Shown: in pieces, positions 1-43,379 of the stretch
Numbering within the stretch: position 1 is the first letter of the stretch
How the letters are laid out: each line of letters opens with the position of its first letter
Origin: Escherichia phage vB_EcoM_H12
Length of the DNA stretch: 64,000 nucleotides
Sequence record: PP952733.1
Strand: one strand, 5' to 3'
The notes under the pieces: model-generated
What the model was told of the DNA's origin: nothing
Database searches by the model: none
Seen by the model: only the letters and a program-made list of their open reading frames with translations
Made by a program: the position numbers and the translations under genes

Positions 1-1100
1 GCCCCCTTAACATTCTCTTAACAATTTCTTAACAATCCCTACATAGTTATGCTTGTTAGAGACTTGTTAGCCCCTTGTTAAATCTCTGTTAAGACCACGT
101 AAAAGCCTTGTAAGAGCCTTTAGCATAGCCTTTAAAGCCCCTGTAAAGCCCTATAAAGAGCTTTCTACATAGTTGGGGTGTAATTACTAGGAAGAGACTA
201 AAAAGAGCTTATAAGGAGCTATAAAGGGCTTTTAAGAGGGCTATTTAAAAAGTCACTAAGAGGGAAAGGGAACGATAAGAAAAGAGATAGTGACCATGTT
301 AATAGCTTGTTAAAAAGATTAAACACTTGTTAGGAACTTGTTAATTATCTTAACAAAATAACTCTTTAAAATTAACTTGTTAGCTCTTGTTAGTCATCTG
401 TTAAGACTCTGTAAAGCCTATGTATCAACTGTTGAGACTCTGTTACAGCCTTGTTAGTTCTGTTAAGAATCTGTTAAGACCTCTGAAGAGATGTTAAGAG
501 GATGTAGTAGCTGTTAAGAGATTGTTAAGGATATTTTAAAATTTTGCAAAGGGATGGTAAGGGAGCTGTTAAGGGCTACCAAGCAGATATACATCTTTTA
601 CAGATATTTTTCAGTTCCTTCAAAGACCCTAAAAAATGACTTGATAGTCCTATTTTATAAAAATTTTAAAATTCTGAATAATTACCTAAACAGTCTTCTA
701 AAAATACAGGCATAAACAGGCTTATAAGATACCTTGTTAGTACCGTGTTAGACCTTGTGAGATAAGGTCTGTAAAGATATTCCTGTTAAGTTTGTTAAAA
801 CAGTCTATATAGAGGCTTAGTAATACCTAGTGAACACCTATAGAGGGTAACATAGCTGACATAGAGATTAAGAGGTGTATAGGAGCTTCTAAGAGGGTAT
901 AGAGGTATGGTTAAGGTGATTGTATAGGTTGTTAAGAGGGCTTGTTAGAAGGTTTATTAGAAGGCTATTTAGAAGGTTTATACAGAGGGGCTATTAAGAC
1001 CACTAGATAGTTACTAAGATACTATATAGTACTATATAACTATATAGAGAGTAAGATTAAGAAGGTTGTTAAGAAGGGTAGATATTTTATTCACATATGA
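1..1100. repeat. Non-coding array of about 30 short direct repeats (consensus YTGTTARR, often CTGTTAAGA or CTTGTTAG), plus TAAGAGG-like motifs
   Basis: Repeat copies counted by eye, nearly all in plus orientation, several at 10-12 bp spacing (e.g. 375/386/398 and 461/471/483); two inverted copies (TTAACAA) near position 20; no ORF of 60 aa or more in the track for 1-1180. Confidence 0.7.
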
Positions 1101-1180
1101 TGGTGACCCAGAGGTTGGGACAACCGATAAAATTTTATAAAAATTAAAAAGCCCCCAATTAAGGAGGCTCTTAAGATATT

Positions 1181-2980: not shown

Positions 2981-3484
2981 CTATAATTGTAGGTTGCATT
3001 CTTTACTTACCTCTTCAAGTTTAACCTCAGAGTCCTTAAGTCGTTTCTTATGAACTCTGAATCTCATTAGTGCGATGATGATACCAACTAAAGGAACAGC
3101 ATACAAGTACCAAACATCATACCCCTTTGCAGTAATCTGTGTAATGGTCAAGTCTTGAGCTATGGAACTGATTGCTGATACTGCCAGTAATGTTGCTAAG
3201 AAAAATGCCAGTACCATTACCGTACTTAAACAACCTCTGGCATGGTGTTCATGCTTAATGCACTTATTCTTTTCGTCAACAACCCTGTTATAGTCGTTTG
3301 TAAAGTCTCTGTAGAAAGCTTTCAAGTATTCTTTATTGTATCCTTCAAAGCAACCTGTACCGTACCAATAATCACCACCAAAATGTGCTATGATACCAGT
3401 GTCCCCATTCGGTTTAGTTACTCTCAAAGAGGTGTGATGACGAGTGTCTTGATAATCTATTTTGTATCTTTCTTCGTAAATCAT
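2981..3484 (-). CDS. putative membrane protein (167 aa)
   Basis: Two hydrophobic helices (VMVLAFFLATLLAVSAISSIA and AVPLVGIIIALMRF) in translation. Confidence 0.5.
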   Translation of the reverse strand: MIYEERYKIDYQDTRHHTSLRVTKPNGDTGIIAHFGGDYWYGTGCFEGYNKEYLKAFYRDFTNDYNRVVDEKNKCIKHEHHARGCLSTVMVLAFFLATLLAVSAISSIAQDLTITQITAKGYDVWYLYAVPLVGIIIALMRFRVHKKRLKDSEVKLEEVSKECNLQL

Positions 3485-3699
3485 TTTCTAATCCCTCTCA
3501 ATCGTTTGTTCCACTCAAGGTCAACAAGTCTTTGTAGGACTTTCCCTCTAGGTGTTACACCTCTTAAGTCTGCATCGTAACAATGGTAAAAGTCACCTTC
3601 AGCGTATCTACCATAGCATTTTCTGATATTCTGACTCCTACGATACTGCTCTAACAGGGACAGTTTGTAGTAATCTTCAACTGTAGTTAGTTTTTTCAT
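3481..3699 (-). CDS. hypothetical protein (72 aa)
   Basis: ORF in track, start overlaps stop of upstream gene. Confidence 0.4.
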   Translation of the reverse strand: MKKLTTVEDYYKLSLLEQYRRSQNIRKCYGRYAEGDFYHCYDADLRGVTPRGKVLQRLVDLEWNKRLRGIRK

Positions 3700-3782
3700 T
3701 CTTTCACCACGTATCTTCTCAAGAAAATAAAAAGGGAACTACCTCTCGATAGCTCCCATCATAGTTAATACTGCATATTTGG

Positions 3783-4364
3783 TCAAGAGTATTTTTTAGG
3801 CAGTAATGCACTGCGCTTGTTACTCTCTTCACTCAATAGTGCGATAAATTCATCACCTTTCCCTTTCCACGGACTGAATGTAGGGATGTGCTCTCGGATA
3901 GCCTCAATCACTGTTTTCAGGGCGTTGTTCTTTAACCACCAATCAGATACTGCCGAAGCTACAATGTAGTAAGCACCATCATCTGTGAAGATTGGCTCAG
4001 AGATACATGGTGAAATCATAGTGGTAATGATAGAACCATTATTCATGTAGTATGTTCTTTTTTCAACCTTGTCAAGCAGTTTATGAAGGTCTGCAAAGAG
4101 ACTTACCACCTCTTTATGGTCAATATCTTTTTCAAGATTTGCCCTGTATTTCAATAGTGCAGCATCAACCTCTTTATCATTGAATTTGAAGTATTGAACT
4201 TCTTCATTCACACATACACTGATGTTGTTGGTGTTTATCGTCAATTTGCACAGTTTGACTGGAGAGTTAATGTTGGTCTGAAAAAGTGCTACACAGCCTT
4301 CTACATTCCCGAAATGTTTGACTAATGTAACTTCTGGTTGGATGTGCTCATGTTCTTCTGACAT
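3783..4364 (-). CDS. hypothetical protein (193 aa)
   Basis: ORF in track. Confidence 0.5.
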   Translation of the reverse strand: MSEEHEHIQPEVTLVKHFGNVEGCVALFQTNINSPVKLCKLTINTNNISVCVNEEVQYFKFNDKEVDAALLKYRANLEKDIDHKEVVSLFADLHKLLDKVEKRTYYMNNGSIITTMISPCISEPIFTDDGAYYIVASAVSDWWLKNNALKTVIEAIREHIPTFSPWKGKGDEFIALLSEESNKRSALLPKKYS

Positions 4365-4708
4365 TATAGTTTCCTCATTAAATACTTTTTAAGTTGTGTG
4401 TTAGGTTTCTCAAAAACTTCTATAGAAGATATCTTGACAGACTCACCACGCATACCTGTATGTTTAAATATGTAATACTCTAACATCCCTATGTACTTTG
4501 CTGGTAAGTCATGTTTGACATAGACTGTTACAGAATCTTCAAATTCAACAACCTTTGTACCATCCTTGTAGTTAAACTCTTTAGGATGGTTGTAGTTGTC
4601 GATGTCGTACATTAAAAAGAGTCTTTTCCGTTGCATGTCAAGCTTATTGGTTAAAGATTCTTTGATATCTGAGAAGTTTTTATATACTATGACATGGAGC
4701 TTACTCAT
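4364..4708 (-). CDS. hypothetical protein (114 aa)
   Basis: ORF in track, abuts upstream gene. Confidence 0.5.
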   Translation of the reverse strand: MSKLHVIVYKNFSDIKESLTNKLDMQRKRLFLMYDIDNYNHPKEFNYKDGTKVVEFEDSVTVYVKHDLPAKYIGMLEYYIFKHTGMRGESVKISSIEVFEKPNTQLKKYLMRKL

Positions 4709-8928: not shown

Positions 8929-9054
8929 AGGCTTATAAATACTTAGAAGATAACTTAAAAGGTTCCTCTAAAAAGGCTATTTAAACAGATATCTTTCTGG
9001 ATATCTATCTTTTATCTTAAAAGCCTTTTAAGAGGTCTTATAAGAGGCATACCA

Positions 9055-9426
9055 ATGAAAAACAGAACAAACAAAGGCCAGTTTAAAAAAGGCCAGTCTG
9101 GAAACCCATCTGGAAGACCAAAAGGCTCTCGTAACAAAAGCTCACTTGTAAAAGCTCAACTGACCATTGATAATTCTGCTGAGTTTGCTGCAAAGTTGTT
9201 TGAAGCGATTGTTACAAGGGACGCTGCTAAGCTTGCAGAGTTTGGTCTAAACACAGATGACGTAACCATCAAGAGCATGATTGAGGTCGGTAAAACTATC
9301 ATGACTCACTCAGCAGGTGAGATGAAAGCAATTGCAGCAGATACTAAGAAGACCCCTGATAATGGTGGTCAGTCACAGACAGATAACAAACCAACGTTCT
9401 CTGCTGTAGCTACTCTCAAAAAATAA
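9055..9426 (+). CDS. hypothetical protein (123 aa) with basic Gly/Pro-rich N-terminus
   Basis: AAGAGG RBS; N-terminal KGQFKKGQSGNPSGRPKGSRNK. Confidence 0.5.
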   Translation: MKNRTNKGQFKKGQSGNPSGRPKGSRNKSSLVKAQLTIDNSAEFAAKLFEAIVTRDAAKLAEFGLNTDDVTIKSMIEVGKTIMTHSAGEMKAIAADTKKTPDNGGQSQTDNKPTFSAVATLKK

Positions 9427-9507
9427 TTTTAAAAGGTGTTGACAGGCTCTACAAAGTTGCTCTAAAGTCTGTCACATCAAACAACAAATGAGAGAAGAGA
9501 GTAAAAT

Positions 9508-10923
9508 ATGAGCGAATTATTTAAACATGCGCACCTTCATGCAGGTCGAACTGAAAATGGTGCTGTAAACCATACTTCATCAATGTCTGCTCTGGTAGAC
9601 TTCTACAAAGCCGCTGGCTCAAGCCGTAGCAATGTAGAAATCTTACCAGACCTGTTCTACAAAGCTTTGCGTGAGGATGTTGATGTTGCAGTTCGTATTT
9701 TACTGCATATGCGAGATGTACGAGAAGGTATGGGTGAGCGTAAAGCTTTCCGAACTGTTTTACTTCAAGCGATTGAAGATAAAGTTTTAGAGCCTACACA
9801 GGTTCTTCGCATTATGGATAAGATTGCAGAACTTGGTCGTTTTGATGACTTCAAAATCTTCGTAGGTACTCGTTTTGAGACAGATGCCTTCAAACATTTA
9901 GAAGCAGCATTACTAGACCCTGCAACAGCAGGTTTAGCGGCTAAGTGGTTACCACGAGTAAAACCACGCCACAAACAGTTTGTAAAACGTTTCTGTAAGT
10001 TTGCAAACTTAAGTGAGAAGGAGTATCGCACGCTGTTATCTGCACTGTCTGATACGGTTGAGCAAAAAATCTCTGCTAATGAGTTTGGTAAGATTGACTA
10101 CAGCAAGATTCCTTCACTCGCTGCTGCACGTTACCAAAAGCTCTTTAACCGTAAAGATGGGGAACGTTACAAAGCTTACATCGAGTCCCTCTCAAAAGGT
10201 GAGGCTAAGATTAACGCTGGTGCTGTTTACCCATACGATGTGATTAAATCTATCAAGTATGGTAATGCAGATGTTGCTAATGAGCAGTGGAAAGCACTAC
10301 CAAACTGGATGGCAGAAGGTGAGAACATCTTGTGTATGACTGATGTTTCAAGCTCAATGTCTTGGGTGAATCTTGGTTCAATCACTGCCCTTGATATTGG
10401 TGTATCACTTGCTTTGTATGTAGCAGAACGCAACACTGGTTGCTTTAAGAATGAGTTAATGGTTTACTCAACAAACCCTCACTTCATCGAACTGAGTGGT
10501 GATTTACGAAACCGTCATCGTCAGGTAATGCGTCATGTTGAATACGGTTCAACTAACTTACAAGCAGCTTTTGACCGTATTCTTGAGGTAGGTAAGCGAA
10601 ACAACTTGACTCAGAAAGATATGCCAAGTAAGCTTATTATCTTCTCCGATATGGAGTTCAATCAGGTTGATGGAGCTAACGGTCGTACAAACTTTGAAGC
10701 AATTCAGAGTAAGTACAAAAAAGCTGGATACGAAATGCCACAACTAGTATTCTGGTACTTAGCAAACCGTAATGGTACTTGCGAAGTATCTGTTAAGGAT
10801 AATGGTGTAGCAATGGTATCAGGGTTCTCTCCAGCCACTTTAAAAGCTCTGCTTGGTGGTGAGAAGTTTGACCCAATCAGCATAATGCTCAAAGCGGTAA
10901 TGATTGACCGTTACATCTGGTAA
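9508..10923 (+). CDS. vWA-domain protein with MIDAS motif and long helical N-terminal domain; candidate Ro60-like (TROVE-vWA) protein
   Basis: DxSxS MIDAS motif (CMTDVSSSMSW) about residue 277 preceded by hydrophobic strand; about 270-aa N-terminal domain; TROVE-like assignment is inference from domain layout only. Confidence 0.6.
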   Translation: MSELFKHAHLHAGRTENGAVNHTSSMSALVDFYKAAGSSRSNVEILPDLFYKALREDVDVAVRILLHMRDVREGMGERKAFRTVLLQAIEDKVLEPTQVLRIMDKIAELGRFDDFKIFVGTRFETDAFKHLEAALLDPATAGLAAKWLPRVKPRHKQFVKRFCKFANLSEKEYRTLLSALSDTVEQKISANEFGKIDYSKIPSLAAARYQKLFNRKDGERYKAYIESLSKGEAKINAGAVYPYDVIKSIKYGNADVANEQWKALPNWMAEGENILCMTDVSSSMSWVNLGSITALDIGVSLALYVAERNTGCFKNELMVYSTNPHFIELSGDLRNRHRQVMRHVEYGSTNLQAAFDRILEVGKRNNLTQKDMPSKLIIFSDMEFNQVDGANGRTNFEAIQSKYKKAGYEMPQLVFWYLANRNGTCEVSVKDNGVAMVSGFSPATLKALLGGEKFDPISIMLKAVMIDRYIW

Positions 10924-42874: not shown

Positions 42875-43174
42875 TTAATCTGCCAGCCTTAAATTAAAAT
42901 TAACACCAAATTTTTCGCATACTTCCAACATAAACTCAAGAGAGACATTACCAGTGAGATTGATTATGTTGGATACGCGAGCCTGAGAGATACCACAAAT
43001 TTTAGCAACTTGCTCTTGAGAAAGACCTCTGGATTTAATCTCTCTCTTAAAACGATGTGCAACGAAGTCTCTCATTTCGTCTACATCCATTGGACAAATA
43101 TAATTCTCCATTTCAGCCTCTCTGTCAGCCTCCCAATCATCTTGTGGAGCATAAGGGTCAAAAACCTCATTCAT
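42875..43174 (-). CDS. HTH (XRE-like) transcriptional regulator
   Basis: Helix-turn-helix LSQEQVAKICGISQARVSNIINL; start moved to internal ATG (track start is TTG at 43204). Confidence 0.55.
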   Translation of the reverse strand: MNEVFDPYAPQDDWEADREAEMENYICPMDVDEMRDFVAHRFKREIKSRGLSQEQVAKICGISQARVSNIINLTGNVSLEFMLEVCEKFGVNFNLRLAD

Positions 43175-43379
43175 CTTTCTTCTTCCGTTTTCGTGAAGTG
43201 TCAATCAATGAATCTATGTTTGTAGACCTAACCTTTTCACGTTCATCGTTAAGATAATCGTCAAGAATCTTTTCAATCTGTGAATCATCTTGACAGATAA
43301 CTGTAAAGACTGTAAAGCCGTCTGTATCATCAATTATCTTACCATAACCGCTTCTGGGATGTAACTTTTTAAGAGCCAT
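43167..43379 (-). CDS. hypothetical small protein (70 aa), basic C-terminus
   Basis: ORF in track. Confidence 0.35.
   Translation of the reverse strand: MALKKLHPRSGYGKIIDDTDGFTVFTVICQDDSQIEKILDDYLNDEREKVRSTNIDSLIDTSRKRKKKDE

Follow-up and report, generated by a model that had tools for sequence, protein, structure and literature searches.

The DNA analysed here (hereafter the window) is a stretch of 64,000 nucleotides of Escherichia phage vB_EcoM_H12 (sequence record PP952733.1) that starts from the left physical terminus of a Felix O1-like (Felixounavirus) myophage genome. Its first 1.1 kb are filled by an array of about 30 short repeats with a TGTTA core, which lies in a direct terminal repeat (DTR) and in the flank adjoining it; this array and its putative role in DNA packaging are the subject of the present work. 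Megablast of positions 1-1200 retrieved 255 phage records; in 234 the match extends over at least 80% of the query, mostly at 90-95% identity. Positions 1-580 align with the last 581 nt of phage D4 (94% identity), and the same sequence opens D4. The presence of 1-580 at both D4 ends identifies it as the left copy of the DTR; the right end of the vB_EcoM_H12 genome itself lies beyond the 64 kb. Several records carry the 1-580 sequence twice. Window base 1 is the first base of the records of D4, I14.1, ZX4221 and E9, the ends of EcSzw_1 fall at window positions 2 and 579, and the DTR annotated in UAB_69 exceeds 1-580 by 2 nt on either side, the independent boundaries being concordant within 2 nt.

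The DTR of this genus is already documented. Bal31 digestion with run-off sequencing gave a length of 608 bp in UAB_Phi87 (PMC4837284), and PhageTerm one of 581 bp in Pr103Blw (PMC8303462). A DTR is also given for D4, E9 and I14.1, in the case of D4 by PhageTerm (PMC11737134). The differences in DTR length within Felixounavirus are accounted for by whole-unit insertions of 11 and 22 bp. The first Felix O1 paper inferred short terminal repeats and did not describe the array, the region appearing there as a 1.62-kb gap between ORF23 and ORF24 (ORF, open reading frame). No description of the array within the DTR was found in the literature searched, and a search on the motif words returned nothing relevant. 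The region is organised as follows (window coordinates; a slash within a sequence marks the DTR boundary):

1-35, minus strand: terminal block GCCCCCTTAACA... with three inverted TTAACA copies (7-12, 18-23 and 29-34) at 11-bp spacing; nearly without variation in three genera, with a homologue at the left end of Kolesnikvirus (GCCACTTTTACATT).
52-97, plus strand: four units in series at 11-bp spacing (CTTGTTAG twice, CTTGTTAA and CTGTTAAG); cores invariant or nearly so across genera.
98-262, plus strand: degenerate units of 10-11 bp (CTGTAAAG, CTATAAAG, CTTATAAG, CTTTTAAGAGGG and others), read from the sequence; repeat families D3, D5 and D11.
286-375, no strand: DTR block of highest conservation, with copies at 297, 308, 328 and 339 (plus) and 350 (minus); mean identity 0.96-1.0 in 20-nt bins in three genera.
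376-577, plus strand: densest forward run, with copies at 378, 388, 399, 452, 461, 472, 492, 512, 523 and 567 plus in-phase degenerate copies.
565-593, no strand: right DTR boundary TGTTAAGGGCTACC/AAGCAGATATACA; D4 ends with ...GGGCTACC and UAB_69 two bases later; invariant in three genera.
596-715, no strand: AT-rich conserved stretch devoid of motif copies (CTATTTTATAAAAATTTTA); promoter signal not above chance and no IHF consensus.
716-800, plus strand: further forward copies beyond the DTR (735, 746, 784 and 793, plus degenerate ones), from the motif scan.
800-1080, plus strand: second array, in which purine-tailed units (TATAGAGG, TTAAGAGG, TTAGAAGG) recur about every 11.6 bp; three copies of CTATATAG at 1021-1047 and TGTTAAG at 930, 943 and 1067.
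1147-1172, minus strand: intrinsic terminator of the leftward gene block and inner limit of the transcription-free junction, from a terminator search.

The first-pass annotation of the window had described about 30 motif copies, almost all in one orientation, several of them at about helical-turn spacing, a picture that the quantification bears out. TGTTAR is found 25 times on the plus strand and four times on the minus strand of positions 1-1100, a rate about 20 times that elsewhere in the window (1.14 and 0.84 matches per kb on the two strands, respectively), so that 29 of the 154 matches of the 64-kb window fall in 1.7% of its length. The TGTTA core itself occurs 26 times in forward orientation in this segment. 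The longer words CTTGTTAG and TGTTAAGA are each present in eight copies, against 0.03 and 0.10 expected, respectively. The 500-nt bins richest in TGTTAR are 1-500 (19 copies) and 501-1000 (9 copies), every other bin of the window holding at most 4. Start-to-start distances are most often 11 bp; 20-22, 33 and 44 bp also occur. In the base-composition spectrum, 1-580 gives a peak at 10.4/11.2 bp with a power of 9.4 (maximum 5.0 and median 2.1 in 216 background windows) and 581-1100 one at 11.6 bp. Nearly all of the array reads as 10-12-bp units in which clean copies (CTTGTTAG, CTGTTAAGA) are interspersed with degenerate ones (CTGTAAAG, CTATAAAG, CTTTTAAGAGGG); its sub-blocks each have their own unit variants, the purine-tailed type (TATAGAGG, TTAGAAGG) with a period near 11.6 bp being found from about position 800 on.

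The orientation of the units is organised relative to the genome end. The cores read leftward in the first 35 bp of the window and rightward from position 54 onward through most of the repeat, an arrangement that leaves several end-pointing copies on both mature DNA ends. Each DTR boundary has, within 35-70 bp, three to four copies that face the cut. The inverted copies at the extreme left, first counted as two, are in fact three, and a fourth is found at 350-355. Two of the four copies in the window of the 9-mer TGTTAAGGG occupy mirror positions by the boundaries (4-12, minus strand; 567-575, plus strand), and positions 512-530 are an inverted repeat of 5-23, with 95% complementarity over 19 nt. 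At the centre of the DTR, two head-to-head motif copies make up the palindrome TTGTTAATTATCTTAACAA (338-356), which is perfectly conserved.

Conservation was assessed in an alignment of the window with seven relatives: four further members of Felixounavirus, one of Suspvirus and two of Mooglevirus. The junction is 75-77% identical to its counterparts in Suspvirus and Mooglevirus, the neighbouring genes 67-78%. Invariant alignment columns amount to 82% in the motif cores versus 61% in all other positions (Fisher p = 2.5e-8), and nearly all DTR motif copies are retained in Felixounavirus, Suspvirus and Mooglevirus. Selection on the motif is concluded from this higher conservation of the cores than of the spacers and from the persistence of the copies across genera. 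Insertions and deletions between relatives correspond to whole units (10-12, 22 or 24 bp). One extra 11-bp unit is placed just before block 52-97 in some relatives, and indels of 11, 12, 20 and 32 bp occur in the second array (800-1080).

In Kolesnikvirus (Erwinia phage phiEa21-4) the region is mostly unalignable, yet arrays of TGTTAAGA are again present. The record ends delimit a Kolesnikvirus DTR of about 440 bp. Its left end, GCCACTTTTACATT..., is homologous to that of the window, and its right boundary, ...CCACTAA/GCAGATATACA, which coincides with the end of eight records, is homologous to the right boundary of the window. Reverse boxes are found in the left half of this DTR and forward boxes in its right half. 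The phiEa21-4 record (L008) also carries, at 3230-3560 in the right-end flank to the left of the DTR, a second and different phased array (TTCTAAR, at about 10-11 bp). The TGTTA array is a real, selected and organised feature, common to four Ounavirinae genera.

Positions 581-1146 are the transcription-free flank of the concatemer junction adjoining the DTR. In permuted records the region sits between convergent gene blocks. The terminator at 1147-1172 is mirrored by a plus-strand terminator at the D4 right genome end (record L004, 3994-4011), about 400 bp ahead of the right DTR copy. With terminators on both sides, the concatemer junction comprises about 1.55 kb without genes or transcription (the DTR, 581-1146 and about 400 bp of the other end). 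The longest ORF in 1-1180 has 53 amino acids, in agreement with the initial remark that 1.18 kb are free of ORFs of 60 amino acids or more, and none of at least 30 amino acids within 1-1146 is kept in all eight aligned genomes. Six σ70 promoters were predicted in the region when 4.8 are expected, which is chance level. An Rfam scan of 1-1300 yielded no family, only a weak match on the flanking terminator. The IHF consensus WATCAANNNNTTR was not found in 1-1200. There is one DnaA box in the region, and three in the whole window against 3.9 expected, meaning no enrichment; the window has no Chi site. The genes beside the region belong to PHROG families of unknown function. Short coding sequences (CDSs) for hypothetical proteins are annotated inside the array in several records: D4 CDS0001, UAB_69 gp027 and gp028, phiEa21-4 gp32 and five in E9. 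Examples of their location are the D4 equivalent of window 1033-1170 (minus strand), 3454-3749 in record L009 and 4298-4519 in record L008. They are probably spurious, as the ORFs found there are not conserved.

Judged from its sequence, the array has the architecture of a head-to-tail site of the OmpR/PhoB type. We propose, with a probability of roughly 55%, that it serves as a platform for protein binding and thereby marks the concatemer junction as the place where the terminase cuts and the repeat is duplicated. A sequence-specific protein would bind the copies head to tail and cooperatively, in the manner of OmpR/PhoB-family regulators on direct repeats 11 bp apart. That a single protein might bind cooperatively is made plausible by the core, the direct orientation and the 11-bp spacing, all of which equal those of ArcA/PhoB-type head-to-tail sites. 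The resulting nucleoprotein structure would then mark the junction, where the large terminase (TerL) would cut at two conserved boundaries, ...GCTA/GCCCCC... and ...GGGCTACC/AAGCAG..., and the repeat would be duplicated during packaging as in T7-type phages. The left end of the window reads GCCCCCTTAACATT... and its right DTR boundary ...GGGCTACC/AAGCAGATATACA. Candidate readers of the array are a phage DUF5681 protein and host ArcA-P. Among the functions listed by the first-pass annotation, a terminal or packaging role fits what was found (1-580 is the DTR, 581-1146 the junction flank, and the orientation flips at the end), while nothing supports a partition site.

The phage candidate is encoded far from the array:

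9055-9426, plus strand: 123-amino-acid DUF5681 protein, candidate small terminase or array reader (PF18932, E 2e-14); conserved throughout Ounavirinae.

Felix O1-like phages are said in the Felix O1 literature to be without a small terminase, and no small terminase (TerS) is annotated in the window. The N-terminal motif KKGQSGNPSGRPKGSRN of the DUF5681 protein is invariant and, on our reading, may resemble an AT-hook; the arm GNPSGRPKGSRN is also invariant. Distant DUF5681 homologues in two phages (P0041 and P0048) are encoded directly upstream of TerL genes and overlap them, which is the canonical position of a small terminase gene. In the window, gene 9055-9426 heads the rightward block of TerL, with a Ro60-like gene, tRNAs and homing-endonuclease genes in between. 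The structural model of the protein (predicted local distance difference test score, pLDDT, of 70.8) comprises a disordered arm and, after it, a helical hairpin, and a sequence search of solved structures returned nothing. It is possible that the DUF5681 protein is the small terminase considered "missing" from Felix O1-like phages. Upstream of its gene, the segment 8895-9055 contains two overlapping TTGACA-type −35 elements and one TATAAA. It is probably one of the repeated promoter/leader segments reported for Felix O1, since part of it has a 42-bit match elsewhere in the window. The TAAGAGG motifs near 8990-9040, initially regarded as related to the array, correspond to the 5′ leader and ribosome-binding site of gene 9055-9426; the best match of 8990-9040 to the array scores 26.3 bits, and control segments reach 42 bits. 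The only annotated transcriptional regulator (42875-43204, minus strand), an XRE-type helix-turn-helix protein by eye from its translation, was set aside as array reader.

Several observations weigh against a packaging platform. The DUF5681 gene is 7 kb from TerL. Comparison of the DUF5681 model with PDB folds gave nothing below E = 3 and matched no solved small terminase, for which reason the protein remains a lead. No TGTTA arrays were found in the readable flanks of the distant DUF5681-TerL loci. The mirrored TGTTAAGGG at the right boundary is lost in Kolesnikvirus, in which conservation is limited to the outer flank GCAGATATACA, so that the cut is probably set by the conserved boundary sequences and not by the 9-mer alone. 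The AT-rich block flanked by repeats also has the look of a replication origin. Finally, we know of no function established for the analogous arrays of T7, and the T7 analogy is therefore no proof of a role in packaging.

T7 is the closest precedent among phages that have ends of this kind. The likeness lies in the short exact terminal repeats and in about 15 non-coding 7-bp CCTAAAG-like repeats, in one orientation, in and just beyond the 160-bp repeat (these arrays were reportedly named SRL and SRR by Dunn and Studier in 1983). The T7 motif differs, however, from the TGTTAAG or CTTGTTAG found here, its spacing is 12-13 bp rather than 11 bp, the T7 array spans about 350 bp instead of about 1.1 kb plus the other flank, and ArcA-type boxes are absent from T7. 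As motif and spacing differ, the relation is one of analogy and not of homology. In the R sites of lambda cosB with IHF, the P1 pac hexamers and the SPP1 pac boxes, 3-7 repeated elements lie by the cleavage positions. The array shares with them multiple short repeats by the cleavage positions that would assemble the packaging enzyme; it differs by the lack of an IHF consensus and by two cuts 580 bp apart in place of a single site. The T5 injection stop signal (9140-10149 of NC_005859) is likewise non-coding and filled with repeats, about 1 kb long and situated at the inner edge of a terminal repeat. The T5 repeat is, in contrast, 10.2 kb long and carries genes, the T5 units are different (some are DnaA-box-like) and they include no cluster of ArcA boxes. 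To our knowledge, two-step DNA transfer has not been described for Felix O1-like phages.

The alternative that survives best, though we consider it unlikely, is that the array is a platform for host ArcA-P, or for a close relative of the OmpR/PhoB family, acting as an architectural or redox-sensing factor at the genome ends. Its roles might be protection of the ends after injection, anaerobic control of replication or concatemer processing in the gut, or titration of ArcA; it overlaps with the packaging platform if ArcA is the reader used for packaging. ArcA is present in Enterobacterales, the hosts of all these phages, and the phage carries anaerobic nrdDG genes. The TGTTA core, the direct repeats and the 11-bp spacing equal the published signature of the ArcA-P site, which consists of TGTTA-core direct repeats 11 bp apart centre to centre with 2-5 repeats per chromosomal site (PMC3798270, PMC4173790). 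E. coli ArcA-P sites also resemble the array by 22-bp distances and multi-repeat runs. The comparison was made with an 18-bp box position weight matrix (PWM) rebuilt from 115 in vivo ArcA boxes (Table S3), whose scores correlate with the published ones at r = 0.994. It was used alone because the single-repeat ArcA PWM, with 14 background matches per kb at 4 bits in this AT-rich DNA, is too unspecific. Boxes of at least 12 bits number 10 in 1-1146 and 11 in the other 62.9 kb, both strands considered. The two best array boxes (22.6 and 19.1 bits) lie in the terminal block 1-35, the best E. coli box of the table scoring 21.4 (real sites range from 9 to 21 bits, with a mean of 15.5); the phage scores are within or above the in vivo range. 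The Felix O1 prototype has 13 boxes in its 1.62-kb junction versus 16 in the other 84.5 kb, 11-15 boxes per junction are present in D4, mistaenkt, Sf17, KMM4 and phiEa21-4, and the enrichment is likewise seen in Suspvirus, Mooglevirus and Kolesnikvirus. No ArcA-type box was found at the ends of T7, SP6 and N4, and T5 has scattered single boxes only, without a cluster. Two isolated T5 boxes of 23.7 and 21.1 bits (record L023, 5316 and 6578, minus strand) lie in the terminal repeat near annotated pre-early promoters.

The fine structure of the array speaks against ArcA. TGTTA is followed by G in 29% of the phage copies versus 2% of the ArcA repeats (which have A, C or T), and TGTTAA by G in 75% versus 8%; the GC content of the spacers is 0.51 in the phage array and 0.17 in ArcA sites. 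This mismatch of flanks and spacers suggests another or an additional reader. In E. coli 2-5 repeats are found at promoters, whereas about 30 repeats cover a promoter-less genome end in the phage; ArcA normally acts at promoters, and promoter signal is here only at chance. ArcA-P is moreover low in air, the condition under which these phages are isolated and propagated on plates. The report on a Salmonella genome-wide screen that included Felix O1, as listed in the literature search, carries no mention of arcA, and a literature search for a link between ArcA and a lytic phage genome found none. On this view ArcA-P would form a head-to-tail polymer over about 30 phased TGTTA sites covering the terminal repeat of all Ounavirinae and would so couple end processing, replication or end protection to the oxygen status of the host; we regard this as a tentative and rather doubtful proposal.

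A replication origin, with the repeats as initiator iterons and the AT-rich stretch 596-715 as unwinding element, is quite unlikely. Direct repeats in one orientation at helical spacing around a conserved AT-rich block, in a region that is conserved and transcription-free, would suit it, and the iteron-type origin listed by the first-pass annotation has nothing beyond the repeats and the AT-rich block in its favour. The DTR boundary gives an equal layout around 596-715, however, and an origin leaves unexplained why the densest and best-conserved part of the array is the terminal repeat and why orientation reverses at the genome terminus. DnaA boxes show no enrichment, and no initiator-like gene was recognised among the neighbours. 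GC skew was discarded as an origin signal, being dominated by the strand bias of the motif.

It is very unlikely that the array has no specific reader and arose as a by-product when units slipped in non-coding terminal DNA, being kept perhaps for curvature or for the homology that forms concatemers. Indels of whole units and sub-blocks with their own unit variants are what slippage would leave. It does not account for cores significantly more conserved than spacers, for a core kept in four genera, including Kolesnikvirus with its otherwise diverged DTR, or for an orientation organised relative to the ends. An annotation gap hiding small genes or a non-coding RNA is extremely improbable despite the short hypothetical proteins annotated there, given ORFs that are not conserved, indels that are not multiples of three, the single weak Rfam match on the flanking terminator and a position downstream of terminators on both sides.

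A side observation concerns the whole window. GATC has no site in 1-64000, where about 190-210 are expected, and ATGCAT, CAGCTG, CTGCAG, GAATTC and GGTACC are also missing, although 10-25 of each would be expected, a sign that Dam and restriction sites are strongly avoided.

How ends are recognised and duplicated in phages with short exact terminal repeats is poorly understood, even in T7. For this question the Felix O1-like junction offers a clean substrate, with conserved cut sites, a helically phased array of one motif and two concrete candidate readers. The result also shows where Ounavirinae genome records should start. If ArcA were the reader, a two-component regulator would have an architectural function on the genome of a lytic phage, a use for which no precedent was found in the literature searched; the phage life cycle would then be tied to the oxygen state of the host in the gut, which would matter for therapy with Felix O1-like phages.

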